A model generated the notes under the pieces. The model saw nothing but the letters and a program-made list of their open reading frames with translations. It was not told the origin of the DNA and searched no databases. This document shows, piece by piece, positions 1-13,524 of a stretch of DNA of 15,255 nucleotides. How positions within the stretch are numbered: the stretch's first letter is position 1; each line of letters opens with the position of its first letter. Source of the DNA: a virus (Duplodnaviria; Heunggongvirae; Uroviricota; Caudoviricetes); the IMG/VR virus record IMGVR_UViG_2541047698_000010; one strand, given 5' to 3'. The position numbers and the translations under genes are program-made.

Positions 1-1164
1 TTACGCCTTCTTTATATCCTCCATAATTCCACAGTGGGACATATTTGGGACATTATCACCAAAAATGTCGTCTATTTTCCTTGCATGCTCTGTCAAATGA
101 TTAGGCGCAAGGTGAGCATACCTACGAACCATTTCTATGGACTCCCATCCGCCCATTTCCTGAAGCACAGATAATGGGACGCCTGACTGGATCAGCCAGC
201 TTGCCCAGGTGTGTCTGAGGTCATGGAAACGGAAATCTTCAATTCCTGCACGACGACAAGCTGATAGCCATGATGTCTTGCTGTCGATGCGCATCTTCCT
301 GACCGCAGGCGTTGATGTTCCATCTGCTCGCTTAGCCGCCTTGGTATGTACAAACACCCATTTGTGATGCTTGCCTATTTGATCACGCAACACTTTACAG
401 GCGGTATCGTTCAGCGCCACACCAATGGCGCGGTTTGATTTGCTCTCTTCTGGATTCACCCAGGCAACTCGTCGCTGCATGTCGATTTGTTGCCATTCCA
501 GATTTATGATGTTCGACTTTCTCAGACCAGTTGCCAGCGCAAACTTGACGACAGATTTCAGTGGTTCGGGGCACTCATCAATAAGGCGTTTTGCTTCCTC
601 CTTTTCCAGCCATCTGACTCGCTTGTTTCTGACCGCTGGTATCTTGATGACAGGCGCTTTTTCCAGCCACTTCCAGTCGCGTTCTGCAGCACGGAGAATG
701 GCCTTTATCATGGCAAGATGCTTTGCCTTTGTCTGAGTTGATACTGGCTTTGGTTCATAAACAGGCGGTTCTTTACCTTTCCTGATGGCGGCCTGAACTT
801 TCTGTTTCCATATTTCTTTCGTCTTTCTGTTATGCATTCTGCTTACAGCAGAGTAAATCTTTGCCTCCGAGATATCTTTAAGCCTTATACCCTCAAAATG
901 TTCAAGCCAGAACTCAATCCGGCTTTTATCTGAATCGAGAGATTTTTTATCAGCTTTTTCCTCAAGCCATCTTAGGCAGGCCTCTTCAAAAGTGACATCA
1001 GGTAAATCCCCTAGCTTTTCTACTTGCCAGAGTTCTGCTTTTCGCTTGTCGTGCAACTCCTGAGCTTGCCGCTTGTCCTTTGTGCCAAGAGATTCCTTAA
1101 TTCGTTTCCCGCCCGGGAGCGAATACGAGGCATACCATATTTCATTTCTGCGGAAGAGTGACAT
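1..1164 (-). CDS. int: Phage tyrosine integrase (site-specific recombinase), DLP12 IntD-like
   Basis: 387-aa minus-strand ORF. C-terminal tyrosine-recombinase catalytic region (HDLRHTWAS ... VRRYAHL). N-terminus [18 protein letters not shown] resembles argU-targeting lambdoid integrases as recalled. Window position 1 is the stop codon. Confidence 0.9.
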
Positions 1165-1391
1165 TTTCTTTCCTCTGTTATGCCATCACCCGCGCTCACC
1201 TGGACAGTATGCAGCGGAGACTGAAGCGCCGCAATGCAAGCTTGCCGTGTTGTGAGGTAAGGAGATTTTGGCTTGGTTGGATCTTTACGTGTTGCCTGTA
1301 GGCGGCCTGTTCGTATCCAGTTGGTGGCGGTTGGTCTGGATATCTTAAGAAACTGACAGGCCTCATCGAGTGTGAGGCTGTATGGCTCCAT
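1020..1391 (-). CDS. xis: Excisionase / AlpA-like HTH DNA-binding protein (Xis)
   Basis: N-terminus [31 protein letters not shown] is a typical Xis/AlpA helix-turn-helix. ATG at 1391 overlaps the stop of the upstream gene (TAATG coupling). The last 145 nt overlap the int start, so the C-terminal end is uncertain. Confidence 0.55.
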
Positions 1392-1696
1392 TATTTCACC
1401 TCTTGCTGTGTCATTGTTGAAAAATGGATACCAGCTCGTTGCTGCCAGACGATCCAACCGAGAGTCATATCCCATGCCATGTATTCGTTATCGCCGTTTT
1501 TTACTCTCCGACGATCTACTAAGTCACCGAAACGCTTTTCCATGAATAATTCATAGGCTTCGCGTTCATCTGGCTCTACTTCCAGAGATACGAGTGCGAT
1601 TTCATAAGCACGGCGCTCAATATCGTCTCGAACCTCTAGGCTGCTGATTCGTTCTTTGATTTCTTTAATCAGTTCTTTATTGGTAAATGTGGTCAT
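1391..1696 (-). CDS. yfdT: Hypothetical early protein, CPS-53 YfdT-like (101 aa)
   Basis: 101-aa ORF, acidic, translationally coupled on both sides. Size and position match the yfdPQRST block of K-12 CPS-53 as recalled from memory. Confidence 0.55.
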   Translation of the reverse strand: MTTFTNKELIKEIKERISSLEVRDDIERRAYEIALVSLEVEPDEREAYELFMEKRFGDLVDRRRVKNGDNEYMAWDMTLGWIVWQQRAGIHFSTMTQQEVK

Positions 1697-2058
1697 TATG
1701 CTCCAGCCTCCGGTGCTTTTGGCATTACTGCCCAGTGAGTGATATTGACGTTTTCAAGGTCCCCGACCTGAAATGTCCACTGCCATTCTCCGGTTTCTTT
1801 TTGTCCCCAGGTGTACCAGAGAGAACGCCAGCCAATCAGCCAGCCTTCTCCATTAGCATCAAATAACAGAACACTTTCATTTGCTGGTGGCAGTTCAGCT
1901 GACACTGGTATTATTTTGTTTTCCAGTGCCGCACATTTAGCTTCAAGCGCGTCGAATTTACGTAACAGGTACTCAGCATTTGTTTCATTCACTTTCAGAT
2001 CTCGCGGTACACATTTCCCGCGAAGAAACCCTTCCATTTCGAAAACATTCATGCGCAT
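1696..2058 (-). CDS. yfdS: Hypothetical early protein, CPS-53 YfdS-like (120 aa)
   Basis: 120-aa ORF with GGAG Shine-Dalgarno 8 nt upstream of the ATG at 2058. Stop overlaps the next start. Confidence 0.55.
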   Translation of the reverse strand: MRMNVFEMEGFLRGKCVPRDLKVNETNAEYLLRKFDALEAKCAALENKIIPVSAELPPANESVLLFDANGEGWLIGWRSLWYTWGQKETGEWQWTFQVGDLENVNITHWAVMPKAPEAGA

Positions 2059-2585
2059 TTGCGTAACTCCGATAAATCGTTAAAACGTTCCATAAACATC
2101 CCGTAGGCATGACCCGGTGCCAGTGGAATCACGTTGAACATCTCTGTTGCCGGGATGCCTTCCAGTACAGGCCAGAAAGAGCCATCATCAAGCCCGAGAT
2201 CGCGGCGTTCGGTTGCCAGCATGATGAGATCGGCATATTTCACGGGTGTACTCATAACTGGGGGTAACCCGTATTTCTCACGGATTACGGCGTCTATTTT
2301 TTCTTCCATCCGTTTATAGTCAGGAAGAAGGCGTTTCAGTGGTGCGGGAATGTCCTGGCAATACGCTTCTGTTGCATCATGCATTAACGCTTCAAAAGCA
2401 AATTCCTGCGGCACCAGCTGGCTGCAAAGAACCGCATGTTGGGCGACGCTGTAGAAGTGCGAAAGATGACCGGCAAAGCGACAGATATTTGAAAGGGAAA
2501 CCGCGATATCGTTAATATCGATGTCGTCTTTATTTATCTTGTCATAATAAAAATGCTTCCCGGAAAAAGTTTTAATAAATGACAT
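2049..2585 (-). CDS. yfdR: HD-domain phosphohydrolase (5'-deoxynucleotidase, YfdR-like, 178 aa)
   Basis: HD motif (..EALMHDATEAY..) and further His/Asp metal ligands. Start taken at MSFIKTF (ATG 2585), which gives 178 aa; the ORF-track start at 2612 adds 9 residues. Confidence 0.8.
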   Translation of the reverse strand: MSFIKTFSGKHFYYDKINKDDIDINDIAVSLSNICRFAGHLSHFYSVAQHAVLCSQLVPQEFAFEALMHDATEAYCQDIPAPLKRLLPDYKRMEEKIDAVIREKYGLPPVMSTPVKYADLIMLATERRDLGLDDGSFWPVLEGIPATEMFNVIPLAPGHAYGMFMERFNDLSELRKCA

Positions 2586-2712
2586 TTTGTTCTCCACGTA
2601 TATGCACTGCACCGCGCTGAATTCTGGTAAAAGGAAGCCCTCACCATCCGGTGATTATTGAGTTAATTACGTTTCCATAAATGCCCCCGCAGGGGCATTT
2701 GCAGTAATGAAA

Positions 2713-3537
2713 TCAGGCGGTGAAAGTACCAATAAAGGTTTCTACTTTGCTGTCTTTGAATTTCTCAACAAGCAGATCACGAAATTCGTTAGCCATTTCT
2801 TCCTGCACCGCTTCCAGCTGAATAATGCGCAGAACCAGTACAGGACGATCGCCAGTGATAATGCTGAGGCGTAATTTAAACGGACGTTCTTTCAGACCTT
2901 CAAACGGAACGCATTTAAATTCAAATGCCACTGGCATAATGTCTTTGGTCTTCGCTTCGACAGACTCCATCAGGGAGCGTTTGCCGCTGAAGTCATTATC
3001 TTCAAAATCAGCGGTCTGGTTTGCTTCAATCGTGATTTTACGGACTGCCGCAGCCGCTTTTGTTGCCTGAATAGCGTCACCATTAGCATCAAAGCCCACA
3101 AGGTAGTCGGCCCAGTCTTCGATCCATTCTGCCAGTGACTTCTGGGAGTTACGCTCGCCGTTAACAGACAACAGAGCAGAGAACGGTGCTGTCTTTTTCA
3201 GTTTGAGAGTGGCAGTGTTATCTGCGTGACCTGGCTCATCAATAGTACCCAGGTTAAGCACACTGACGGCACGCATATTATCGGCATCGATAAAGCAGCG
3301 GGTGCCTTCATCTGCAAGATCTTTAGAATAACGGGTAAAATCATCGATGCTGGCAGTGGAAAGTGCACCACGGAAACGGAAGCGATTTAAATTAAATTTT
3401 TCCAGATCATGAATGCGGAAATTCTCAGGCAATGCCACAGCATCGGCACCAATCTTACTGATAATTTCATTAACACCCTGAGCAGAAATAAGGGCATGGA
3501 TTTGATTAATTGCGGTTGCGTCTAAGTTCTGAGACAT
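2713..3537 (-). CDS. yfdQ: DUF2303-family protein (YfdQ-like, 274 aa)
   Basis: 274-aa ORF with GAGGA Shine-Dalgarno upstream of the ATG at 3537. Sequence recalled as YfdQ-like. Confidence 0.7.
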
Positions 3538-3602
3538 AATAAGTCCTCACTATATAAAGATATTCAGTGATGAGATAAATAATCAGTTTATTACGAACGA
3601 TA

Positions 3603-3965
3603 TTAACGACCTGCTGCGCGGAGTTTTCCGTCAGGTTCACCGGCAAGAGTCAGTAATTGTCCCTGGTCTTCCTGCAGAATAGTCAGGCGACCACCGCGAT
3701 TGACATACATCGGCGTTTCGGTGGTGTCTTCTTCGGAAATTTTCCCGCGGTTAGTTGGGCGAACATATGAGAGTTTGTGTTTGATTTTCACACGGTTCTC
3801 ATCAAACGGTTCGATTTCCAGATTGAGTGAGACCTTCCCTTTGGTTTTCGTGTTCATCACACCGGAAGCGACCTCACTGAGAACTGCGCCGATTTTGGTT
3901 TCAAATACGCCGCCGTCCAGCTCCCCGATAAATGCCTGCACATCAGTACTGCGTTCGCTAGCCAT
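3603..3965 (-). CDS. yfdP: Hypothetical early protein (YfdP-like, 120 aa)
   Basis: Start chosen at MASERSTDVQ (ATG 3965) with a GAGGAG Shine-Dalgarno. The ORF-track N-terminal extension into the GC-rich region is Arg/Cys/Gly-rich and looks non-coding. Confidence 0.6.
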   Translation of the reverse strand: MASERSTDVQAFIGELDGGVFETKIGAVLSEVASGVMNTKTKGKVSLNLEIEPFDENRVKIKHKLSYVRPTNRGKISEEDTTETPMYVNRGGRLTILQEDQGQLLTLAGEPDGKLRAAGR

Positions 3966-4014
3966 TTTGCTGCTCCTCATCATATCGACCCTGCAAGGTC
4001 GGTTGGTTTCTCCA

Positions 4015-4101
4015 CAAAACAGAGAAGAACACCTGCGGTGGCAGCCGCCCGGATGGATTGGGTTATGAGCCCGTCGTCCGGTGATGCTCTTCTCTGTTTT
4101 G
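4015..4101. repeat. Perfect inverted repeat: 14-bp arms (4015-4028 / 4088-4101) around a 59-nt GC-rich loop
   Basis: CAAAACAGAGAAGA at 4015-4028 is the exact reverse complement of 4088-4101. An inner CACC/GGTG pair (4030-4033 / 4080-4083) extends the stem. Confidence 0.7.
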
Positions 4102-4102
4102 C

Positions 4103-4148
4103 AAAAAAGGACGGTACCAGCCGGAAGCAAGGGTACAAACTGGTACCG
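4103..4148 (-). terminator. Candidate intrinsic terminator on the leftward transcript (tL-like), about 140 nt upstream of yfdP
   Basis: 9-bp perfect stem CGGTACCAG (4112-4120) / CTGGTACCG (4140-4148) with a 19-nt loop. On the minus strand it is followed by UCCUUUUUUGC (plus A-run 4103-4108). Confidence 0.5.
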
Positions 4149-4149
4149 C

Positions 4150-4367
4150 CAGGACTACACACAGCATAAAGTTGTGGTGCCGGGTGCCTCCCGGTGCCTG
4201 GCGAAGGTTGCACACCAGGCGGGTGGGTATCCACAGAAGGTCGACTGTCAGCCTCAACCTTAACCCGCGTGCGCTGAGCCGCATTCACCACAACGCTAAG
4301 GATTCTCTCTGGTTGAAAATACTTAGCTGTTATGTGCCTGCTTTTAGCCACATCAGGCGAGGTGGAC
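4150..4367. other. GC-rich, highly structured non-coding block (candidate cis-acting RNA element or ncRNA)
   Basis: GC content clearly above the flanks. Several nested inverted repeats (GCCTGG/CCAGGC at about 4197-4220; AAGGTTG/CAACCTT at 4204-4210 / 4255-4261; GTGG/CCAC at 4223-4234). The ORFs here are Arg/Pro/Gly-rich with no Shine-Dalgarno. Confidence 0.35.
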
Positions 4368-4435
4368 CTGGTTATTCCCCAACAACAAGGATTCGGTTAA
4401 TCTGGATATCCCCAACAACAATAAGAGTATTCAAT
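4368..4435 (+). repeat. Two tandem 34-bp direct repeats (core CTGG-TAT-CCCCAACAACAA) abutting the start of the plus-strand gene
   Basis: 4368-4401 ctggttattccccaacaacaaggattcggttaat and 4402-4435 ctggatatccccaacaacaataagagtattcaat share a 12-nt identical core. Confidence 0.65.
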
Positions 4436-4459
4436 GTGATCGCTGAATTAACGGCAGCA

Positions 4460-4951
4460 ATGACGGCTATTCGTGAAACAGCCCAGATTGCAAAACTAAT
4501 GAACGAGGCAAAAACTCAAGCTGAAGTAAATGCGGCTATTGGTGAGCTGAACTCAAAGCTTGCGTCTATTCAGCGCGAATGCGTGTCTCTCGTTGAACTG
4601 GTGGGCTCTTATCAAGAAATAAATGCTTCTCTCAAAGCTAAAATTGCAGAATTCGAAAACTTTGAGGCTCAGACGGAAGGCTATATCCTTAACCAACTTG
4701 AGTCGGGTACTTTTGTATACTCGAAGGAGGTAATCGTGAACGGTGGCAGCATAACCATGCATCTTTGCCCAAAATGTTTTGGACAAAAGATAGTATCGAT
4801 ACTTCAACCATTCCCGGTTAGCGAAGATGAGCTTTTTCATAAAAGCAGGTGCCTCCACTGTGAAAATAAGTTTCTGATGAATAAAAATCCGGATTACGTA
4901 TCGCCTCCATCCATTGAGGAGTTGTCCAGAAAACTTAACGGCAATCTGTAG
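4460..4951 (+). CDS. Hypothetical coiled-coil / C4 zinc-ribbon protein (about 163 aa), convergent with cI and antisense to the pL operon
   Basis: N-terminal 75 aa are Ala/Glu/Lys/Leu-rich with heptad-like periodicity. C-terminus has CPKC-x24-CLHC. Own plus-strand terminator follows. Alternative GTG start at 4436. The ORF-track extension back to 4172 is GC-rich junk. Confidence 0.6.
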   Translation: MTAIRETAQIAKLMNEAKTQAEVNAAIGELNSKLASIQRECVSLVELVGSYQEINASLKAKIAEFENFEAQTEGYILNQLESGTFVYSKEVIVNGGSITMHLCPKCFGQKIVSILQPFPVSEDELFHKSRCLHCENKFLMNKNPDYVSPPSIEELSRKLNGNL

Positions 4952-4976
4952 ATTGCTACTGTTGTGGATATCCAGA

Positions 4977-4988
4977 TTGTTAAAGAGC
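4977..4988 (-). promoter_or_regulatory. boxA-like antitermination element (GCUCUUUAACAA) on the pL transcript
   Basis: Minus-strand sequence GCTCTTTAACAA is a 12/12 match to the rrn boxA core, about 100 nt downstream of the predicted pL start. A 6-bp hairpin (4941-4956) lies 20 nt further 3'. Confidence 0.4.
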
Positions 4989-4990
4989 TA

Positions 4991-5014
4991 AGCGTCCTGT
5001 AGGGCGCTTTTTTG
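4991..5014 (+). terminator. Intrinsic terminator of the plus-strand zinc-ribbon gene
   Basis: Stem AGCGTCC (4991-4997) / GGGCGCT (5002-5008) with one G-U pair, loop TGTA, followed by TTTTTTG. Confidence 0.6.
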
Positions 5015-5081
5015 TTGCTAATGAATCATCCTAGACTTCATATGCTCCAGGCGGCTACTTCGTGGGCGTCCTGCCTGTTTG

Positions 5082-5126
5082 TTGTTTCTCCTGGGTACAT
5101 TATGTATCCCAAAAGTACATTGTCAA
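5082..5126 (-). promoter_or_regulatory. Candidate pL promoter with OL operators
   Basis: Minus strand reads TTGACA (plus 5121-5126), a 16-17 nt spacer, then CATAAT (plus 5098-5104). Operator-type palindrome ATGTA-N9-TACAT at 5102-5120 and a degenerate copy TTGTT-N9-TACAT at 5082-5100, same geometry as the OR sites. Confidence 0.5.
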
Positions 5127-5130
5127 GTAT

Positions 5131-5153
5131 AAAAAAACCTGCCGAAGCAGGTT
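5131..5153 (-). terminator. Intrinsic terminator downstream of the repressor gene
   Basis: Stem ACCTGC (5137-5142) / GCAGGT (5147-5152), loop CGAA, followed on the minus strand by a 7-U tract (plus A-run 5131-5137). It lies 13 nt past the cI stop. Confidence 0.6.
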
Positions 5154-5165
5154 CATAAACATTGA

Positions 5166-5840
5166 TTAGGCTTTGATTTTGTATCTTCTTGGTTTTCCTG
5201 AGAAAATCACAGTTCCAATTATAGAGCAATTACCGTTGATCTTAATGTAAGGCTCAGGCCAGTTTGGGTTTAACGCTTTGAGATAACGCTGTGTCCCATC
5301 TTCTATCAACCTTTTGAAGGTGGTTTCACCTGTATCGTGCATCAATGCAATAACGTCGTCACCGTGGCAGGCAGGTACTTCAGGATCGACAAAAATCATG
5401 TCTCCCGGGCGGTACTCATCAATCATTGAATCACCTATCACCCGCAAGATATAAGTCATTTCCCCACAGGGTACAGGGCAGGGATACGTTTCTGCTGTGC
5501 TCAAATCAACCTCAGAATATCCAACTTCTTTCCATGCTCCGGCCTGTACCCATGATATGACAGGGACTAATGTGATTTGTTTATTAGTGATTGAAACATC
5601 AGGTTTTTTTGTGATGTTCGTTGTCTGGTGTTCTTGATCGAGCCATCCGACAGGCAGGTCGAAACATTTTTCGATGTGTCGTGCCATGCTGTCACCGATA
5701 TTTTTAGTAGCACCATCTCCCATAAACCTGCTGGTCTGGGTTGGCTCGCGATCAATCATAGTGGCAAAGGAAGAATTCCCGCCAACACCATCTCTCAGTT
5801 TTCTGGCGTTAGACCGCCGGATGTCATGGATTGTTTTCAT
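5166..5840 (-). CDS. cI: cI-like prophage repressor (N-terminal HTH, C-terminal S24 LexA-type autopeptidase domain)
   Basis: 224 aa. C-terminal region has the S24 serine (..VIGDSM..) and a downstream lysine (..TFKRL..). Divergent from the cro-like gene, with palindromic operators between them. Confidence 0.9.
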   Translation of the reverse strand: MKTIHDIRRSNARKLRDGVGGNSSFATMIDREPTQTSRFMGDGATKNIGDSMARHIEKCFDLPVGWLDQEHQTTNITKKPDVSITNKQITLVPVISWVQAGAWKEVGYSEVDLSTAETYPCPVPCGEMTYILRVIGDSMIDEYRPGDMIFVDPEVPACHGDDVIALMHDTGETTFKRLIEDGTQRYLKALNPNWPEPYIKINGNCSIIGTVIFSGKPRRYKIKA

Positions 5841-5846
5841 AACGAA

Positions 5847-5925
5847 ATTAAAACCCTTGTACCGTTAAGGTACAAGTATCTTGAAGGTTCATTTCAATCA
5901 TGTAATATGTATACCGGAGGTACAT
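5847..5925. promoter_or_regulatory. Divergent pRM / pR promoters with OR operators
   Basis: OR1 TTGTA-N9-TACAA at 5857-5875 (perfect palindrome CTTGTACCGTTAAGGTACAAG). OR2 ATGTA-N9-TACAT at 5907-5925. pR is TTGAAG (5881-5886), 16 nt spacer, TAATAT (5903-5908). Candidate pRM on the minus strand (TTGTAC / TTTAAT) would start at or next to the cI ATG. Confidence 0.55.
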
Positions 5926-5930
5926 ATTGT

Positions 5931-6131
5931 ATGAAAGCGTATTGGGACTCTTTAACCAAAGAACAGCAGGGCGAGTTGGCCGGAAAAGTTGGCTCAACAC
6001 CTGGCTACTTACGGCTGGTTTTCAATGGCTATAAAAAAGCCAGTTTTGTGCTGGCTAAAAAACTTGAGCAATGCACGTCAGGTGCAATTACGAAATCTGA
6101 CTTAAGACCGGATATCTATCCGAAAGATTAG
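5931..6131 (+). CDS. cro: Cro-like HTH regulator (66 aa)
   Basis: ATG at 5931 with a GGAGG Shine-Dalgarno 10 nt upstream. Small basic protein, first gene of the rightward operon. The ORF-track start at 5628 is an upstream extension across the operator region. Confidence 0.8.
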   Translation: MKAYWDSLTKEQQGELAGKVGSTPGYLRLVFNGYKKASFVLAKKLEQCTSGAITKSDLRPDIYPKD

Positions 6132-6162
6132 CAGAACACTTTCAATTTTTAACCACAGAACG

Positions 6163-6732
6163 ATGAGGCTAATCGTGGGTAAGCATCACTGGAAAATAGA
6201 AAAACAGCCTGAGTGGTACGTGAAAGCTGTCAGAAAAACTATCGCGGCGTTGCCGAGTGGTTACGCTGAAGCGGCTGACTGGCTCGATGTAACAGAAAAC
6301 GCTTTATTCAACCGCCTTCGTGCAGATGGCGATCAGATTTTCCCGCTGGGATGGGCAATGGTTTTACAGCGTGCTGGTGGCACTCATTTCATTGCTGATG
6401 CTGTGGCGCAGTCTGCAAATGGCGTCTTTGTGTCTCTTCCTGACGTCGAGGATGTGGACAACGCCGATATTAACCAGCGTCTGCTGGAAGTCATTGAACA
6501 GATCGGCAGTTATTCAAAACAGATTCGTTCAGCAATCGAAGACGGTGTAGTGGAACCGCATGAGAAGACAGCAATTAACGACGAGCTGTATCTCTCAATT
6601 TCGAAGCTGCAGGAGCATGCAGCACTTGTCTACAAAATTTTTTGCATTTCAGAAAGTAATGACGCCCGCGAGTGTGCAGCTCCGGGCGTCGTGGCGTCGA
6701 TTGCTTCTGGTTGTGGAGAAACTAACGCATGA
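6163..6732 (+). CDS. CII-like / YdaT-family regulatory protein (tentative)
   Basis: 189-aa ORF directly after cro, in the position of cII. Family assignment is from memory of YdaT/CP76-type proteins and is not confirmed. A GTG at 6175 is an alternative start. Confidence 0.45.
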
Positions 6733-7067
6733 ACAGTTTAACAACACACTACCGTCGCTCGCAACTGATTGCGCTTCCTGTACCGGGTGGAAAAGCGAAG
6801 GTGGAATATTGCTATGCAGTGAATGTACCAGGTGACAGGGAAATTGTAACCCACAGCTTTGCAGAGTGGGCTGTGGGGGATTTCAACCGGCAGAAGGAGA
6901 CAGTCCTTTGCGACAAGTTAACCGCTGGTTCAAAGATCACTACGGAGTGCCCGTCAGAGTCATTCGTTGGGAACCGGAAACACAACGGGTTATCTACCTC
7001 CGCGAAGGCTATGAGCATGAGTGCTTCAGTCCGCTCGAACAGTTTCGTCGTAAATTCAGGGAAATAG
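6729..7067 (+). CDS. Hypothetical protein (112 aa); frame uncertain in its 3' half
   Basis: ATGA start-stop overlap with the upstream gene. Its TAG stop lies inside the GAGG Shine-Dalgarno of the O-like gene. An overlapping frame (6866-7087) encodes a more globular-looking peptide. Confidence 0.35.
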
Positions 7068-7076
7068 AGGTCGGTC

Positions 7077-8018
7077 ATGAGCACTAAATTAACCGGCTAT
7101 GTATGGGATGGTTGCGCAGCGTCAGGCATGAAATTATCCAGCGTGGCAATTATGGCCCGCCTGGCTGATTTCAGTAATGACGAAGGTGTGTGCTGGCCAT
7201 CGATTGAAACCATTGCCCGCCAGATTGGCGCGGGGATGAGTACAGTCAGAACGGCTATCGCACGGCTGGAAGCAGAAGGCTGGTTAACGCGTAAGGCGCG
7301 TCGCCAGGGTAACCGCAATGCGTCGAATGTTTATCAGCTTAACGTTGCGAAGCTTCAGGCTGCGGCATTTTCTCAACTGTCAGATTCTGACCCGTCAAAA
7401 TCTGACGCATCAAAATCTGACCCGTCAAAATTTGATGCGTCGAAATCTGGCAAAAAAGCGGGTTTTCACCCGTCAGAATCTGGCGGGGATCCGTCAGTAA
7501 AATCAAAACATGATCCGTCAGATAAAAAACCTTCTCGTCCGGACGCTTCGCAACCGGACACGCAGACGGCTGAACAGGATTTTTTAACTCGCCATCCTGA
7601 TGCGGTTGTATTCAGCCCTAAAAAGCGCCAGTGGGGGACGCAGGATGATTTGACCTGCGCACAGTGGCTCTGGAAAAAAATCATCGCCCTGTACGAGCAG
7701 GCTGCCGAATGTGACGGCGAGGTGGTTCGTCCCAAAGAACCGAACTGGACAGCCTGGGCAAACGAAATTCGCCTGATGTGTGTGCAGGATGGTCGTACTC
7801 ACAAACAAATCTGCGAGATGTACAGCCGCGTCAGCCGCGATCCGTTCTGGTGCCGTAACGTGCTCAGCCCGTCGAAGCTGCGGGAAAAATGGGATGAGCT
7901 TTCCCTGCGCTTATCGCCGTCCGTAAGCACGTACACCGAAAAACGCGAAGACGCGTACTTCAAAGCCAGTTACGACAACGTGGACTACAGCCAGATCCCG
8001 GCAGGATTCAGGGGGTAA
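7077..8018 (+). CDS. Replication initiator, O-like (N-terminal winged-helix DNA-binding domain, repeat-encoded linker, C-terminal domain)
   Basis: 313 aa. N-terminus (..CWPSIETIARQIGAGMSTVRTAIARLEAEGWL..) is a replication-initiator winged helix. The central SDPSKSDASKSDPSKFDASKS linker is encoded by the iteron array. Confidence 0.75.
   Translation: MSTKLTGYVWDGCAASGMKLSSVAIMARLADFSNDEGVCWPSIETIARQIGAGMSTVRTAIARLEAEGWLTRKARRQGNRNASNVYQLNVAKLQAAAFSQLSDSDPSKSDASKSDPSKFDASKSGKKAGFHPSESGGDPSVKSKHDPSDKKPSRPDASQPDTQTAEQDFLTRHPDAVVFSPKKRQWGTQDDLTCAQWLWKKIIALYEQAAECDGEVVRPKEPNWTAWANEIRLMCVQDGRTHKQICEMYSRVSRDPFWCRNVLSPSKLREKWDELSLRLSPSVSTYTEKREDAYFKASYDNVDYSQIPAGFRG
7386..7450. repeat. Iteron-like tandem repeats (about 15-bp period, four to five copies) inside the O-like gene; candidate origin of replication
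   Basis: tctgacccgtcaaaa / tctgacgcatcaaaa / tctgacccgtcaaaa / tttgatgcgtcgaaa at 7386-7445. Further CCGTCAG copies and an A-rich stretch extend to about 7530. Confidence 0.55.
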
Positions 8019-8020
8019 TC

Positions 8021-8509
8021 ATGAGTCTTTTGAATGAAGTTCAGAAATTCATTGAAGCCCATCCGGGGTGTACTTCCGGAGACATTGCGGATGCTTTTGC
8101 AGGCTACTCACGGCAGCGCGTTCTGCAGTCAGCAAGCAAGTTACGTCAGAGTGGGCGTGTGGCTCACCGTTGTGAAGGGGATACACGCAGACATTTCCCG
8201 CGCCTGACTGAGAGAGCGCAGGAGCCGGAACCACAACCAGTTCGTGAAACCAGACCTGCGCGCAATTTCTATGTCGGCACTAACGATCCACGGGTAATTT
8301 TGTGCCTGACCCGCCAGGCTGAAGAACTGGAGTCCAGGGGCTTATACCGTCGTGCTGCAACCGTGTGGATGGCGGCATTCCGTGAAAGCCACTCCCAACC
8401 AGAACGAAACAATTTTCTGGCGCGTCGTGAGCGGTGTTTACGGAAAAGCAGCAAGCGCGCTGCATCGGGTGAAGAGTGGTATCTGTCAGGGAATTACGTG
8501 GGGGCTTAA
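8021..8509 (+). CDS. Hypothetical protein (162 aa), replication-module associated
   Basis: ATG at 8021 after a GGGGG Shine-Dalgarno, immediately downstream of the O-like gene. Stop overlaps the methyltransferase start (TAATG). Confidence 0.55.
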   Translation: MSLLNEVQKFIEAHPGCTSGDIADAFAGYSRQRVLQSASKLRQSGRVAHRCEGDTRRHFPRLTERAQEPEPQPVRETRPARNFYVGTNDPRVILCLTRQAEELESRGLYRRAATVWMAAFRESHSQPERNNFLARRERCLRKSSKRAASGEEWYLSGNYVGA

Positions 8510-9162
8510 TGAGTAATAAATATTGCCAGGCGCTGGTGGAACTGCGGAACAAACCAGCCCATGAACTGAAGGAAGTGGGCGATCAGTGGCGCACGCCGGA
8601 CAACATTTTCTGGGGAATTAACACCCTGTTTGGCCCGTTTGTTCTGGATCTGTTCACTGACGGTGATAACACCAAATGTGCTGCGTATTACACGGCGGAA
8701 GACAACGCGCTGGCGCATGACTGGTCAGAACGTCTTGCGGAGCTTAAAGGTGCTGCCTTTGGTAATCCCCCATACAGCCGCGCCAGTCAGCATGAGGGGC
8801 AATACATCACAGGCATGCGTTACATCATGAAGCATGCCAGTGCCATGCGTGATAAAGGTGGGCGCTATGTTTTCCTGATCAAAGCTGCCACCAGCGAAGT
8901 GTGGTGGCCGGAAGATGCAGATCATATTGCTTTTATTCGCGGGCGTATTGGTTTTGAACTGCCTGCCTGGTTTATCCCGAAAGATGAGAAGCAGGTGCCG
9001 ACAGGCGCTTTCTTCGCTGGTGCTATTGCTGTTTTCGACAAGACCTGGAAGGGACCGGCAATCAGCTACATCGGGCGCGATGAACTTGAGGCATGTGGTG
9101 AGGCGTTTCTGGCGCAGGTTCGCCAGCAGGCGGAAAAACTGGTCAGGGAGATGGCGGCATGA
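8509..9162 (+). CDS. Phage-type DNA N6-adenine methyltransferase (Dam family)
   Basis: 217 aa from the ATG at 8509. Motif IV ..FGNPPYS.. is characteristic of N6-adenine methyltransferases. The ORF-track GTG start at 8476 overlaps the upstream gene. Confidence 0.8.
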   Translation: MSNKYCQALVELRNKPAHELKEVGDQWRTPDNIFWGINTLFGPFVLDLFTDGDNTKCAAYYTAEDNALAHDWSERLAELKGAAFGNPPYSRASQHEGQYITGMRYIMKHASAMRDKGGRYVFLIKAATSEVWWPEDADHIAFIRGRIGFELPAWFIPKDEKQVPTGAFFAGAIAVFDKTWKGPAISYIGRDELEACGEAFLAQVRQQAEKLVREMAA

Positions 9163-9485
9163 CGACGTTAACTCAATGCCAGCAGCAGGTGCTGGATATG
9201 CTGATTTCTTATCAGAAAGAACGTGGCTTCCCGCCAACCAATCAGGAGGTGGCAACCATGCTGGGATACCGTTCAGTGAATGCAGCGGTGGAGCATCTTC
9301 GCGCACTGGAGAAAAAAGGCGTCATCACGATAAAGCGTGGTGTGGCCCGGGGGATCACGCTTCATACCGTGGTGAAGGACGACGACAGCGAGGCGGTCGG
9401 GATTATCCGCTCACTGCTTGCCGGTGAGGAAAACGCCAGGCTGCGTGCAGCCCACTGGTTACATGAGAGGGGCCTGAAAGTATGA
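9159..9485 (+). CDS. LexA DNA-binding-domain-only protein (108 aa; no S24 peptidase domain)
   Basis: Residues 5-68 align with the LexA N-terminal domain (LT..QQ.V.D.I......G.PPT..E.A..LG.RS.NAA.EHL.AL..KGVI.I..G..RGI.L). The recognition-helix region SVNAAVEHLRAL is conserved. The protein ends about 40 aa later. Confidence 0.7.
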   Translation: MTTLTQCQQQVLDMLISYQKERGFPPTNQEVATMLGYRSVNAAVEHLRALEKKGVITIKRGVARGITLHTVVKDDDSEAVGIIRSLLAGEENARLRAAHWLHERGLKV

Positions 9486-9877
9486 AGCTGATCCTACCTT
9501 TTCCGCCCAGCGTGAACACGTACTGGCGACACCCCAACAAAGGGGCGTTTGCTGGTAAGAGCCTGATAAGCGCGGCGGGGCGAAAATTCCAGAGCGCGGC
9601 GTGTGCAGCAATAGTTGAGCAGTTACGTCGTCTGCCGAAACCAACGTCGGCACCTGCTTCAGTGGAGATCGTGTTGTTTCCTCCGGATAACCGGATCCGC
9701 GATCTGGACAACTATAACAAGGCGCTGTTTGACGCCCTGACCCACGCGGGTGTGTGGGAAGACGACAGTCAGGTGAAAAGAATGCTGGTGGAGTGGGGAC
9801 CGGTTATCCCGGAGGGGAAGGTCGAGATCACTATCAGTAAGTACGAAAAAGCGAGTTGCAAATTAGCAACTCGGTAA
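9482..9877 (+). CDS. rusA: RusA-family Holliday-junction resolvase
   Basis: 131 aa with the LPFPPSVNTYW motif and an acidic DLDNYNKALFDAL segment. ATGA coupling with the upstream gene. Confidence 0.8.
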   Translation: MKLILPFPPSVNTYWRHPNKGAFAGKSLISAAGRKFQSAACAAIVEQLRRLPKPTSAPASVEIVLFPPDNRIRDLDNYNKALFDALTHAGVWEDDSQVKRMLVEWGPVIPEGKVEITISKYEKASCKLATR

Positions 9878-9922
9878 CGGAATTGAGCAACACCCTAAAT
9901 TTGGGTATTACCTCGTTAAAGA

Positions 9923-9942
9923 TACTGTATTTATGAACAGTG
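9923..9942. promoter_or_regulatory. SOS box (LexA operator) in the rusA / KilA-N intergenic region
   Basis: TACTGTATTTATGAACAGTG has the CTGT-N8-ACAG core and matches 16 of 20 positions of TACTGTATATATATACAGTA. A candidate promoter (TTGAGC 9883-9888, 17 nt, TATTAC 9906-9911) lies just upstream. Confidence 0.55.
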
Positions 9943-10039
9943 TATCCTTGATAACTATTAAAAATCGCAGTAAGTTCATCCTGCATCAACGAAAAGGGAG
10001 TGCAGTCCCGCTCGTGGATAAAAATTTGTGGAGAAACCA

Positions 10040-10855
10040 ATGAATCAGTTGCTTGTAATTGATGGCGTTTCTGTGCGCCAGTACTTCGAATCTAACTACT
10101 GTCTTAACGACCTTCAGAAAGCAGCTCTTCTTGCCGCTGGTGAGAATCGCTCCTCCCGTTCGCTGGAAGTTCACGAGTTTATGCGTCGTCCTGAAACGAA
10201 GGCTCTTGTGGAATTATTGGAAGAAGAAACTACGGGAGATTCCCGTAGTATTCCTGTCATCACCATTCAGGGGCGCAATGGTGGGACGTATGTCTGTAAA
10301 GAGCTGGTCTATGCATATGCAATGTGGATCAGCCCGGCATTCAGCTTAAAAGTGATACGTACTTTTGATGCGCTTCATAATTCATCACCAGAAGAAACCA
10401 CATCCGACAAAATTAAATCCGGGGTCATTCTGCTTGAATCAGCAGCAAAGACTCTAAATCTGTCAAACTCCTCGAAACTTGGTGCATACCAGAAATTATC
10501 AAAGGTAGCTGGTCTTCCTGAACTTATGCCGATCTATGCCATTGATGCACCTGCTGATGCGCCAGATGGTTCAAGCCGCCCTACGCTGTCGCTGAGTGCA
10601 CTGCTGAAGCAGTATGGTATCCGCCTGACGGCTAATCAGGCATATCACCAGATGGCGAAGCTGGGGATCGTTGAACAACGCGAACGATACAGCCGTACCG
10701 CGATTAACAACATCAAAAAATTCTGGTCGCTGACCGCGAAAGGCTGCATGTTCGGCAAGAACATCACCAGTCCTGCAAATCCGCGCGAGACGCAGCCGCA
10801 TTTCTTCGAATCCCGATTCCCTGAGCTGTTAAAGCTGCTCGATACCGTTCATTGA
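10040..10855 (+). CDS. KilA-N domain protein (antirepressor / Roi-like)
   Basis: N-terminal 110 aa (..VIDGVSVRQYFESNYCLNDLQKAA.. ..IPVITIQGRNGGTYVCKELVYAYAMWISPAF..) resemble a KilA-N domain. ATG at 10040 with GGAG 6 nt upstream. The ORF-track GTG at 10028 is less likely. Confidence 0.7.
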   Translation: MNQLLVIDGVSVRQYFESNYCLNDLQKAALLAAGENRSSRSLEVHEFMRRPETKALVELLEEETTGDSRSIPVITIQGRNGGTYVCKELVYAYAMWISPAFSLKVIRTFDALHNSSPEETTSDKIKSGVILLESAAKTLNLSNSSKLGAYQKLSKVAGLPELMPIYAIDAPADAPDGSSRPTLSLSALLKQYGIRLTANQAYHQMAKLGIVEQRERYSRTAINNIKKFWSLTAKGCMFGKNITSPANPRETQPHFFESRFPELLKLLDTVH

Positions 10856-10856
10856 G

Positions 10857-11852
10857 GTGACCGTGAGAGCACTACTGACCCCTGAAATTGCCCCGCGTAT
10901 GGGGATCGTATTGTTCAGACCAGGTTCAGAGCTGATGCCCTTGTTTATGCAGGGGCGTGTCCTGCTGGAGCCTGAGCCGGAACGTTATTCATCTTTCGCC
11001 AGTGGTGCCGTTCCGGCGGCATCACAACCGCTGGCGGATGATCCTGCCGTTCGGGCCGTGTTCCGCAATGAGGCAGTGATCCGTCGTGCTGGTGGCGTGG
11101 AATGTCTTGAAAGCTGGTTACTTCGTGAAAAAGGCTGCCAGTGGCCTCATTCCGACTGGCACAGCGAGAACATGACAACAATGCGACACGCTCCGGGCGC
11201 AATCCGTCTGTGCTGGCACTGCGATAACCAGCTGCGCGATCAGTTCACGGAACGGCTGGAATCAATGGCAACGGATAACTGTGCCCGCTGGGTGTTGTCT
11301 GTTGTGCGTCGGGATCTCGGTTTTGATGACAGTCATGTTGTGACAATGCCGGAACTGTGCTGGTGGCTGATTCGTAATGATCTGGCGGATGCCTTACCGG
11401 AAAGTGCAGCCCGTAAGGCACTGAGATTACCGAAGCCTGTTGTGCCGTCTGTTACCCGGGAAAGTGACCTTGTGCCTTCGGTTCCTGCCACCAGCATCAT
11501 CCAGGATAAGGCGAAAAAGGTGCTGGCGCTGAAAGTGGATCCGGAGTCGCCGGAGTCTTTTATGTTACGCCCAAAACGTCACCGCTGGGTTAATGAAAAG
11601 TACACGCGCTGGGTTAAGACGCAGCCGTGCGCATGTTGTGGAAAACCTGCTGATGATCCCCACCACCTGATAGGCCACGGTCAGGGGGGAATGGGTACAA
11701 AAGCGCATGACCTTTTTGTGTTGCCTTTGTGCAGAAAGCATCACGACGAGCTGCATGCGGATACCGTGGCATTTGAAGAGAAGTATGGCTCCCAGCTGGA
11801 GCTGATATTTCGTTTTATCGATCGCGCACTGGCGATTGGTGTGCTGGCCTGA
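10857..11852 (+). CDS. DUF968-like protein with C-terminal HNH-like zinc-finger motif
   Basis: 331-aa ORF. C-terminus C.CC....DDPHHL....GG.G.K.HD.....[10 protein letters not shown] resembles a His-Me / HNH finger. Start codon uncertain (GTG at 10857 or a downstream ATG). Confidence 0.55.
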
Positions 11853-11869
11853 TTTTGTGGAGAAAGTTA

Positions 11870-12253
11870 ATGCGTGATATTCAGATGGTTCTTGAACGTT
11901 GGGGAGCGTGGGCGGCTAATAATCATGAAGATGTGACCTGGTCGTCCATTGCCGCCGGTTTTAAGGGATTAATTCCTTCAAAAGTAAAATCTCGCCCGCA
12001 ATGTTGTGACGATGACGCGATGATCATTTGCGGGTGCATGGCCCGTCTGAAAAAGAACAACAGCGATTTACACGATTTATTAGTAGATTATTATGTATGT
12101 GGTATGACATTCATGTCACTGGCAAGTAAGCATTGCTGCTCGGATGGTTATATCGGGAAAAGGTTACAGAAGGCTGAGGGCATAATTGAAGGGATGTTAA
12201 TGGCATTAGATATCCGGTTAGATATGGATATCGTTGCTAATAATTCTAATTGA
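11870..12253 (+). CDS. Q: Late-gene antiterminator Q (phage 82 / DLP12 QuuD type)
   Basis: 127 aa from the ATG at 11870 with GGAGAAA upstream. [26 protein letters not shown]... is recalled as 82-type Q. The ORF-track TTG at 11855 is unlikely. Confidence 0.8.
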
Positions 12254-12275: not shown

Positions 12276-12303
12276 TATTAAAAATGGGGCGTGGAAACGC
12301 CCC
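12276..12303 (-). terminator. Intrinsic terminator for the leftward porin / sRNA transcript
   Basis: Stem GGGGCGT (12286-12292) / ACGCCCC (12297-12303), 4-nt loop, followed on the minus strand by AUUUUUAAU. Confidence 0.5.
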
Positions 12304-12450
12304 CAAAATAAAGGGTAATATATAACAGAAGGTTTATATAGTAAGAAGCAAGGTAGTGCTTCTAAAGGAAGTGGCTTGAGGGCTCCACTTATATGTTGCG
12401 GAGGCAAAGCCTCCCGCAACATATCTTTTTCGTAAGTCAGATTAGAACTG
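12280..12450 (-). ncRNA. ipeX: Candidate IpeX-like sRNA at the porin 3' end
   Basis: By analogy with DLP12, where IpeX spans the nmpC 3' end and intergenic region. Here there is about 170 nt between the porin stop and the minus-strand terminator. No promoter was verified. Confidence 0.3.
12395..12430 (+). terminator. Intrinsic terminator for rightward transcription leaving Q (tR'-like or insulator)
   Basis: 11-bp stem with one bulge (12395-12405 / 12409-12420), loop AAA, followed by AUAUCUUUUU on the plus strand. Not U-flanked on the minus strand. Confidence 0.5.
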
Positions 12451-13524
12451 ATAAACCAGACCTACAGCGACGATGTCGTCGGTATCAATACCAGCTGTTT
12501 TGGTAAACTTACTATCGTCAATTAAGTTGATTTTGTAATCAACAAAAGTGGACATGTTTTTATTAAAGTAGTAAGTAGCACCGACATCGACATACTTGAC
12601 TAAGTCTCGGTCACCATGAACACCAAGGTCTTTACCTTTTGACTGAAGGTAAGCAACAGATGGACGCAGACCGAAGTCAAACTGATATTGTGCTACTGCT
12701 TCAAAGTTTTGTGCTTTGTTTGCAATATGGTTATTACCAAAAACGGTCATATTCTGAGTTTCAGAATATGTGGTAGCCAGATAGATATTGTTCGCATCAT
12801 ATTTCAGGCCTGCAGCCCATACTTCCGCATTTTTGCCGGAGGCATTGAATTTGCTCTTACCATAGGCGACCTGACCGTCAGTGCGATCTGATTTAGCATA
12901 GGTTGCACCCACGCCGAATCCTTCATACTCATAAGTAGTGGAGAAACCGAAACCATCACCATTGGCTTCAGTTACGTCAGTGCGGTCATTTTTACCCTGA
13001 TACTGAGCAGCAAAGTTCAGGCCATCGACCAGACCAAAGAAGTCGTTGTTACGATAAGTTGCAACACCAGTAGTGCGACCAGTCATGAACACATCTGTTT
13101 GGGTCCAGGTATCACCACCGAATTCTGGCAGGACGTCAGTCCACGCACCGATGTCGTATGCTACACCGTAGTTACGGCCGTAATCGATTGAGCCGTAATC
13201 ACCAAATTTCAGGCCTGCAAATGCAAGACGGGTTTTGTCTTTGGAAGAACCTTGAGATTCAGCACGGTTGCCTTTGAATTCATATTCCCACTGACCGAAA
13301 CCAGTCAGTTGATCGTTGATTTGGGTTTCACCTTTGAAGCCAAGACGGGCATAAGTAGTATCACCATCATCTGCATCATTAGAGGAGAAGTAGTGCTTGG
13401 CATTAACTTTCCCGTATAGATCCAGCTTGTTACTGTCTTTATTATAAATTTCAGCTGCCTGAGCAGACATCGCCATCAGTACTGATGCAGCTACAGCAGA
13501 AATTGCCACTGTTAATTTTTTCAT
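12442..13524 (-). CDS. nmpC: OmpC/OmpF-family general porin, prophage-encoded (NmpC / Lc-like)
   Basis: 360 aa with a signal peptide ([23 protein letters not shown]), a beta-barrel pattern with alternating aromatics, and C-terminal ..VGLVYQF. Opposite strand to Q and the lysis genes, as in DLP12 and PA-2. Confidence 0.9.

Follow-up and report, generated by a model that had tools for sequence, protein, structure and literature searches.

The stretch of viral DNA analysed here (15,255 nucleotides, referred to as the window) matches Escherichia phage PhiR49_1 (PV340568.1) with 100% identity; this E. coli phage is lambdoid, SfIV/SfII-like, and has a full genome of 45,270 bp. Within the window, a candidate LexA operator (SOS box) occupies positions 9923-9942, in the gap between the rusA gene and the gene for a KilA-N domain protein, which is followed by genes for a DUF968/HNH-type protein and for the Q antiterminator. 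Judged by its sequence, this site is a genuine and statistically exceptional predicted LexA operator. We consider the balance about even for the further proposal that the box is a functional, recently gained operator of host LexA that would gate rightward transcription from the rusA–KilA-N gap. The proposal draws on the statistics of the box, its position in the gap, the tight packing of the surrounding genes, the score and conservation of a promoter candidate next to the box (P2), the overlap with a second candidate (P1), the retention of the box and the precedent of the Gifsy prophages.

The box, TACTGTATTTATGAACAGTG, has a perfect palindromic core (CTGT-N8-ACAG, 9925-9940) and matches the consensus TACTGTATATATATACAGTA at 16/20 positions, with mismatches at positions 9, 13, 14 and 20. 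These features bear out the original prediction of a strong LexA operator, which had been made from the letters of the window. Taken alone, the single occurrence of the core in the window is weak evidence (1 observed against 0.22 expected, with at least one copy in 40/200 shuffles). The heterology index (HI), proposed together with the prediction as a way to check it, was calculated with a matrix of 29 E. coli operators in the style of Lewis 1994 and Fernandez de Henestrosa 2000, and the resulting values are approximate because this matrix is not the original one of Lewis et al. The box has an HI of 5.0 in the minus reading and 6.9 in the plus reading. Both values lie within the range of the known operators, whose leave-one-out HI has a median of 6.2 (recA, 4.9) and among which the box would rank 12th of 30. 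The next best site of the window reaches 11.8, and across the full genome the box is the only site with an HI below 11.5. None of 2000 dinucleotide-preserving shuffles of the window contained a site with an HI of 5.0 or less, and an HI of 6.93 was attained in 0.3% of them. In quality, the box is comparable to operators of the recA/sulA class and falls in the better half of known boxes. An exact 16-mer scan of IMG/VR returned 40 unrelated contexts, about the number expected by chance for a collection of that size, and was not used as evidence.

The position of the box is equally distinctive. From cro to Q, the plus-strand genes are nearly gapless and mostly overlap, and the rusA–KilA-N gap is the sole sizeable intergenic gap of this early-right operon. 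It measures 162 bp with the KilA-N start at the ATG at 10040, and 150 bp if the GTG at 10028 is taken as the start. Downstream of it, only 7 nt separate KilA-N from DUF968 and 17 nt separate DUF968 from Q. The box lies 4 kb to the right of cI, past rusA and outside the immunity region. The cI repressor itself (5166-5840, minus strand) carries an S24 autocleavage domain (Pfam Peptidase_S24, 1.5e-26) with the Ala-Gly of VQAGAW, the Ser of GDSM and the Lys of FKRL, in line with the S24-type cI that had been predicted; by these motifs it is of the cleavable type with a complete S24 cleavage apparatus. LexA control at the box would therefore constitute a second DNA-damage input.

Upstream of the gap, the plus strand carries a CII-like gene (6163-6732), an O-like gene (7077-8018), PerC/YfdN (8021-8509), Dam (8476-9162), a gene for a truncated LexA homologue (9159-9485) and, as the final gene ahead of the gap, the RusA resolvase gene (9482-9877; Pfam RusA, 6.4e-15). 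The KilA-N domain protein (10040-10855, plus strand, 271 aa) starts at an ATG with a Shine-Dalgarno GGAG at 10030-10033, the start also used in GenBank and by PGAP. The DUF968/HNH-type protein of the YdfU family follows at 10863-11852 (plus strand; Pfam DUF968, 3.4e-81, and HNHc_6; phrog_96, HNH endonuclease), and the 127-aa Q antiterminator at 11870-12253 (plus strand; Pfam Phage_antitermQ, 7.7e-54), which is annotated as Q in PV340568.1. Q is followed by a porin gene on the reverse strand, after which come holin and lysozyme genes, the layout of a lambdoid Q operon. A strong plus-strand terminator-like hairpin (12385-12432; -21.9 kcal/mol, z -7.7, followed by CUUUUUCG) lies about 135-180 nt past the Q stop codon, where tR' is expected. 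A separate hairpin, GGGGCGTGGAAACGCCCC (12286-12303), has its T-run on the minus strand only and is likely the terminator of the reverse-strand porin gene.

Promoter candidates and the route to Q

A strict consensus scan found no promoter in the gap. Candidates were therefore ranked, here and in relatives, by a crude sigma-70 weight model based on textbook hexamer frequencies. The best candidate in the gap, P2 (TTGATA-17-TAAGTT, 9948-9976, plus strand), scores 10.8 and is third on the plus strand of the window; its score exceeds the 9.7 obtained at 5881 (TTGAAG-16-TAATAT), the site between cI and cro where PR is expected. P2 is also the only promoter candidate with phylogenetic conservation. 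At the homologous position, defined by a -10 hexamer ending 60-65 nt before the ATG, the top candidates of five lineages from at least three genera (Kluyvera, Cedecea, Leclercia and the loci L220 and L224) score 8.2-10.8. These are TTGATA-17-TAGTGT in L220, TTGCTA-17-TAATGT in Kluyvera (L215), TTGAAA-17-TAATGT in Leclercia (L222) and TTGCAT-17-TATTTT in both Cedecea (L217) and L224. Across them TAnnnT is invariant and the sequence of the 17-bp spacer has diverged. The T at -12 of P2 falls on the third codon position of an open upstream frame, where the encoded residue is variable. SfII-type loci contain nothing comparable to P2, with a maximum score of 4.9.

The second candidate, P1 (TTGGGT-16-TACTGT, 9901-9928, plus strand), scores 5.8 (99.86th percentile), with the left arm of the box serving as its -10 hexamer. 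In the variant copy AZ187, its -35 hexamer improves to give TTGAAT-16-TACTGT, with a score of 8.2. P1 would be fully occluded by LexA, the TACTGT of the box being its -10; this is the same arrangement as in the sulA promoter, where TACTGT doubles as the -10. A further upstream candidate, TTGAGC-17-TATTAC, scores 6.5. The original prediction placed the box at or just downstream of a candidate promoter, probably meaning these two. Candidates upstream of and over the box do exist, but they are weak (6.5 and 5.8), and the best one, P2, is downstream of the box. On the other strand, the second arm of the box forms the -10 of a leftward candidate (TTATCA-19-TACAGT, 9924-9954, minus strand) that scores 6.2. 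The box overlaps weak promoter candidates only. Between it and the -35 hexamer of the strong P2 there are 5 bp, and relative to P2 the box would lie at about -61 to -42. LexA bound there could disturb the upstream contacts of RNA polymerase at P2 without occluding the core promoter.

Transcripts from P2 would begin with a leader that holds a conserved hairpin. An RNA hairpin with the hexaloop GUGCAG (9990-10015, plus strand) consists of an upper stem GGGA/UCCC (9996-10009) and a lower stem ACGA/UCGU (9990-9993/10012-10015). It is found 20-35 nt before the KilA-N start in every relative of both KilA-N alleles, in several genera (L002 at about 1950-1970, L215, L217 and L220-L224 among them), with stems that differ fully: GGGA/UCCC, GGGG/CCCC, GGGC/GCCC, GGCGG/CCGCC and UCAC/GUGA. 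In an alignment of these hairpins (A6), 82.6% of the cells are paired and 5/9 pairs show compensatory changes; covariation is 0.309 compared to 0.114 in shuffles (attained by 0/500), and 0.03-0.13 in slid controls. The hairpin has no match in Rfam; protein binding, processing and stabilisation are conceivable roles. A function as minus-strand terminator was considered and rejected, because relatives do not share the U-run and the G-U pairs are compatible with the plus strand only.

KilA-N is also preceded by a 36-codon upstream open reading frame (ORF) (9933-10043, plus strand) whose ATG lies within the box and whose TGA shares bases with the KilA-N ATG. Its counterpart is open in 6/6 lineages examined; several relatives have a Shine-Dalgarno sequence before it, and the Kluyvera copy starts within the rusA stop codon (ATGA). 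Since the ORF is in frame with KilA-N in FRIK944/AZ187, L051, L215 and L223 but not in L222 or the window, and since the conserved hairpin is read in different frames among lineages, the ORF is probably not a conserved leader peptide or N-terminal extension. This pattern suggests that what counts is less the peptide than the act of translating the leader.

A terminator scan of the interval from the box to the end of Q found no strong intrinsic terminator, in agreement with the predicted absence of any intervening one. That prediction nevertheless needs a qualification: among four weak plus-strand candidates in this interval, the sole standout is a hairpin followed by GUUUUAU within the 3' end of DUF968 (11780-11822, plus strand; -15 kcal/mol, z -3.0), about 60 nt ahead of the Q start. 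Close relatives retain this hairpin and L051 has lost it; it is a possible partial terminator before Q.

Under the proposed LexA gating, events in a lysogen and after damage would be as follows. In the lysogen, a LexA dimer would cover the weak P1 through the TACTGT of the box, and the same dimer, bound 5 bp ahead of the P2 -35, would impede RNA polymerase in making its upstream contacts. Upon DNA damage, RecA-stimulated cleavage of LexA would free both P1 and P2, so that the leader with its GUGCAG hairpin, KilA-N and DUF968 would be transcribed independently of cI. A part of these transcripts would pass the hairpin and U-tract at 11780-11822 and add to Q synthesis. The outcome would be a second, faster SOS input beside cI autocleavage, which would neither replace that cleavage nor act via an antirepressor.

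Distribution and origin of the box

The gap sequence is present in 186/5426 complete E. coli genomes (about 3%), at 99% identity or more in 178 of the 186, and the gene order is the same at every gap-carrying E. coli locus examined (LexA-like gene, rusA, gap, KilA-N, DUF968, Q). In the phage collection the gap is found only in PhiR49_1 (2 records) and in three SfIV-type records; none of the Stx-converting phages in that collection has it. When loci were recovered from IMG/VR via the KilA-N protein alone (at least 98.9% identical), the box was intact in 42/42. The identical box and KilA-N cassette has spread to prophages that represent three or more immunity types and three or more Q types. The box-carrying prophages examined have late regions like those of Stx phages and no stx genes.

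More distant relatives indicate how the box arose. A protein search for KilA-N proteins of the same allele led to Citrobacter, Kluyvera, Cedecea, Leclercia, Kosakonia, Pantoea and metagenomes, where the gene order is kept and the box is missing; in L051, Kluyvera L215 and Kosakonia L223, only the right half-site ATGAACAGTG is kept. A scan of genome contigs with the N-terminal alignment added only two distant betaproteobacterial loci, both boxless. Homology to SfII-type loci breaks at a lineage-specific segment of about 87 bp (9846-9932), which gives rusA a new 3' end and also contains a palindrome, a spacer of about 55 bp and the left half-site. By sequence comparison, this segment put the left arm TACTGTATTT beside a pre-existing right arm. 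Because most relatives have no box, some of them keeping the right half only, the box is best read as a derived, recent lineage-specific gain. AZ187, the one copy with 93% identity, has shifted toward the consensus at position 20.

PhiR49_1 has a near-isogenic sibling without the box, PhiR29_1 (PV340556.1). The two are 98.9% identical over record positions 1-9864 (int through rusA); homology of PhiR29_1 to the window breaks at about 9851-10533 and then resumes at 92.7%. The swapped cassette of about 680 bp contains the rusA 3' end, the box-bearing gap and the first approximately 165 KilA-N codons. Genome-wide, no SOS-like site better than HI 10.7 was found in PhiR29_1.

Several observations weigh against the proposed LexA gating. 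Most relatives have no box: SfII, the Stx2a- and Stx2c-converting phages, mEp460, Kati, PhiR29_1 and PhiR40_1 carry another allele of the KilA-N N-terminal half and a 19-bp rusA–KilA-N spacer, while in five other genera relatives with the same allele have P2 but lack a box. Because it is absent from a viable sibling, PhiR29_1, and from same-allele relatives that keep P2, the box is dispensable. There is too little variation to show selection on it: variant copies (AZ187, L230 and others) have 14 substitutions in about 200 bp, and the 20-bp box has 1 against 1.4 expected. Phylogenetic footprinting of the box likewise failed, with close copies at least 99% identical and distant relatives boxless. 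P1 is weak, and the position of the box relative to P2 is unusual and not classical for LexA repression. As for Q, the hairpin and U-tract at 11780-11822 make it uncertain that box-dependent transcripts reach the gene. Less damage is needed for cleavage of LexA than for that of lambda-type repressors, and harm would be expected from Q synthesis in the absence of replication or excision. This argues for little Q from the box-side promoter; the same hairpin may limit it. Finally, a literature search on the box sequence, on LexA in connection with KilA-N or DUF968 and on an SOS box in the nin region returned nothing on this site.

Alternatively, the box may bind LexA without meaningful effect on KilA-N, DUF968 and Q and be a near-neutral, recent passenger of recombination, a reading that we consider unlikely though worth keeping in view. 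Expression of the three genes would then depend on PR read-through and on the ancestral P2, as in boxless relatives. PhiR29_1 and many other relatives retain the same gene order without the box, hence its dispensability; the box is clear of the core elements of P2; near-identical copies mean that purifying selection cannot be shown; and the right half-site occurs on its own in the three relatives named above. A passenger, however, has to account for a near-perfect palindrome of recA/sulA quality that 0/2000 shuffles match. Given the right half, the exact left half at the right spacing would come from about 1 in 4096 random sequences. In addition, the box sits between promoter-like elements and not inside a gene, and it has spread intact across the immunity and Q types listed above.

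A different possibility is that LexA at the box represses leftward transcription, the product being a minus-strand small RNA of about 75-110 nt that is antisense to the 3' end of rusA. The 8-bp palindrome of the lineage-specific segment, CGAGTTGC-AAATTA-GCAACTCG (9852-9873; -13.5 kcal/mol), overlaps the rusA stop, has its T-run on the minus strand only and was flagged as a minus-strand terminator. The RNA would start near 9917 (with the -10 TACAGT in the box) or near 9954 and end at a hairpin and U5 at 9873-9843. Minus-strand promoter candidates are available (TTATCA-19-TACAGT, 6.2, and TTGATG-17-GATTTT, 8.1), and a minus-strand RNA from 9918 to 9840 would fold into two hairpins, the second followed by U5 (-27.7 kcal/mol, z -5.2), whose G-U pairs are A-C mismatches on the plus strand. 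The putative unit also coincides with the inserted segment. Against this, both hairpins carry uncompensated stem substitutions in variant copies (9852 and 9871 in L230; 9857, 9895, 9904 and 9905 in AZ187), the 19-bp spacer of the leftward promoter candidate is poor, the RNA has no match in Rfam, and no target is apparent besides the last 30 nt of rusA. We regard such an RNA as improbable.

The truncated LexA homologue and the KilA-N protein

Host LexA is not the only conceivable ligand of the box. Two genes upstream of KilA-N, the phage encodes a 108-aa truncated LexA homologue (9159-9485, plus strand; Pfam LexA_DNA_bind, 2.9e-19) made up of the DNA-binding domain (DBD) and a tail of 35-40 aa. 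It aligns to residues 2-69 of E. coli LexA (E 7.5e-16), with about half of the positions identical, and keeps the recognition-helix pattern RSxNAAxEHL, including Ser39, Asn41, Ala42 and Glu45, residues that contact DNA in the LexA-DNA structure. There is no S24 domain, and the part responsible for cleavage and dimerisation is missing; the protein was accordingly right to be described as uncleavable in the original prediction. Homologues are conserved in lambdoid prophages of Escherichia, Shigella, Citrobacter, Kluyvera, Cedecea, Leclercia and Kosakonia. All of them retain Ser39, Asn41 and Ala42, whereas Glu45 is retained in some lineages only, the E. coli and Shigella copies included. A literature search on the truncated homologue in enterobacteria found nothing, and gp6 of the tectivirus GIL01 was the only studied analogue found; in enterobacteria the protein appears to be uncharacterised.

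It is very unlikely, in our estimate, that this homologue is the real binder of the box, occupying it in lytic growth after cleavage of host LexA and either re-silencing or activating the KilA-N-DUF968-Q promoter as GIL01 gp6 acts at P3. The resemblance to LexA 2-69 with its recognition-helix residues, and the lack of the S24 domain that makes the protein non-cleavable, would suit such a role. GIL01 gp6 is likewise a DBD-only protein, which activates from a site centred at -43.5 at a LexA-repressed promoter (PMC6182141), and the centre of the box is about -51 from the predicted P2 start site. Strong SOS boxes also occur elsewhere in the genomes of relatives. The distribution of the gene speaks against it. 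Essentially all relatives carry the gene, with or without the box (PhiR29_1, the SfII-type phages and other genera included), and in PhiR29_1 it is conserved in a genome whose best HI is 10.7. Because the gene is kept where the genome has no SOS box, the box cannot be the main target of the truncated homologue. Glu45 is not kept in the homologues of other genera, and without dimerisation through the C-terminal tail a lone DBD is a weak binder. The same lack of co-occurrence removes the support for a self-contained SOS-sensing module formed by the LexA-like protein and the box, as had been suggested.

By analogy with GIL01 gp6, one may still imagine that host LexA and the phage LexA-DBD protein hand over the same operator, as a two-LexA timer for late genes; we find this improbable. 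LexA would silence the KilA-N-DUF968-Q region in the lysogen, and once LexA is cleaved the homologue made from PR would occupy the box and boost or re-silence Q, a sequence of events we hold to be highly doubtful. We would give equally little credence to the extension that sibling phages use the same protein on other SOS boxes, for instance inside SfII-type cI.

SfII-type cI genes contain a near-consensus SOS box within the coding region, spanning codons 70-77 of the linker that joins the HTH domain to the S24 domain. In SfII (L228; KC736978.1, 29167-29186), its sequence is TACTGTTTTTATATACAGTA with an HI of 1.19; in the prophages of O104:H4 C227-11 (L227, 3827-3846) and STEC2018-607 (L226, 3351-3370), it is TACTGTTTTTACATACAGTA with an HI of 2.6. 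The cI-internal box forms the -10 of a same-sense promoter candidate, TTTACC-17-TACTGT (score 8.2), which could yield an SOS-induced C-terminal cI transcript (next Met at about residue 91) and might thereby produce a dominant-negative fragment. A third SOS box, TACTGTAAAAATATCCAGTT (HI 3.97), is found in the O104:H4 C227-11 prophage at 13436-13455, where it spans codons 3-9 of a DNA methyltransferase gene downstream of Q.

As for the product of the first gene behind the box, the KilA-N protein looks like a two-domain DNA-binding protein and not an antirepressor. Its annotation in Pfam, PHROGs and NCBIfam is limited to KilA-N or "transcriptional regulator", and no antirepressor family, domain or fold was found, the Tum, GfoA and AntC sequences not having been compared directly. 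The family is an ordinary PR-operon gene in boxless relatives. Moreover, the identical box and KilA-N cassette stands beside three repressors that share 23-35% identity or less: the cI of the window, a 217-aa S24 protein (35% identical, in the C-terminal domain only) and a 230-aa XRE/S24 protein (23%). This association with three repressors, and with at least three Q types, argues against a repressor-specific antirepressor, and the antirepressor-like role first attributed to KilA-N is not sustained. The reading as an antirepressor module was rejected on the strength of the KilA-N/regulator-only matches, the cleavable-type cI and the several unrelated repressors. PADLOC returned a weak KilA-N-type match only (PDC-S22), with no assignment to a defence system. 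DUF968 proteins are reported to consist of an Orf-like domain joined to an HNH nuclease domain (PMC4118853).

Implications and comparison with known systems

If the LexA gating proposed here is correct, about 3% of sequenced E. coli, together with Shigella phage SfIV, have prophages that wire DNA damage to nin-region genes, possibly including Q, in a way that bypasses the repressor. Such logic would be unlike that of lambda, which relies on repressor cleavage, and unlike that of Gifsy and 186, in which an antirepressor inactivates the repressor. It could alter induction thresholds, spontaneous induction and cross-talk between prophages. PhiR49_1 with the box and PhiR29_1 without it, which share 98.9% identity through the immunity and replication region, form a ready natural experiment. 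Direct medical relevance is limited, since the box prophages examined have no stx and the Stx-converting phages of the phage collection lack the gap.

Among known systems, Gifsy-1, -2 and -3 offer the closest layout: a LexA box 1.3 kb downstream of the replication genes, with a terminator-like palindrome before it, drives dinI, an antirepressor and irsA (Lemire, Figueroa-Bossi and Bossi 2011, PMC3121763). PhiR49_1 shares with them a nin-region LexA box outside the immunity region, a palindrome ahead of it and a short rightward operon. The operons differ in content, with DinI, a small antirepressor and IrsA in Gifsy and the KilA-N protein, DUF968/HNH and Q here. Further, the Gifsy repressors are not cleaved, whereas the cI of the window has the complete S24 apparatus; the PhiR49_1 cassette is found with several unrelated repressors; and the box is essential for induction in Gifsy but absent from a viable sibling of PhiR49_1.

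The tum gene of coliphage 186 and antC of N15 are LexA-repressed antirepressor genes (PMC3121763, PMC8044961) in which, as proposed here, a single LexA operator at a prophage promoter ties lytic development to LexA cleavage. Their antirepressors are required for induction and act on non-cleavable repressors, whereas no antirepressor family was found here. The late promoter P3 of GIL01 is repressed by host LexA together with gp7 and activated by the truncated LexA homologue gp6, whose site is centred at -43.5 (Fornelos et al. 2018, PMC6182141). Likenesses to PhiR49_1 are a phage-encoded, DBD-only LexA homologue, host LexA sites that govern late genes and an activator site just upstream of or over the -35. 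GIL01 differs in its Gram-positive host, in having no cI-type repressor and in carrying LexA boxes in the late promoter itself, while the PhiR49_1 box precedes the Q gene; in the PhiR49_1 group, moreover, the truncated homologue does not specifically co-occur with the box. With sulA and recA, the PhiR49_1 operator shares the consensus and a comparable predicted quality, but the strongest local promoter candidate (P2) does not overlap it. Because an antirepressor gene and a matched non-cleavable repressor, the features that define the antirepressor family, were looked for and found to be absent, the sequence places this site probably not in that family but, more broadly, with SOS wiring of the Gifsy/186/N15/GIL01 type.

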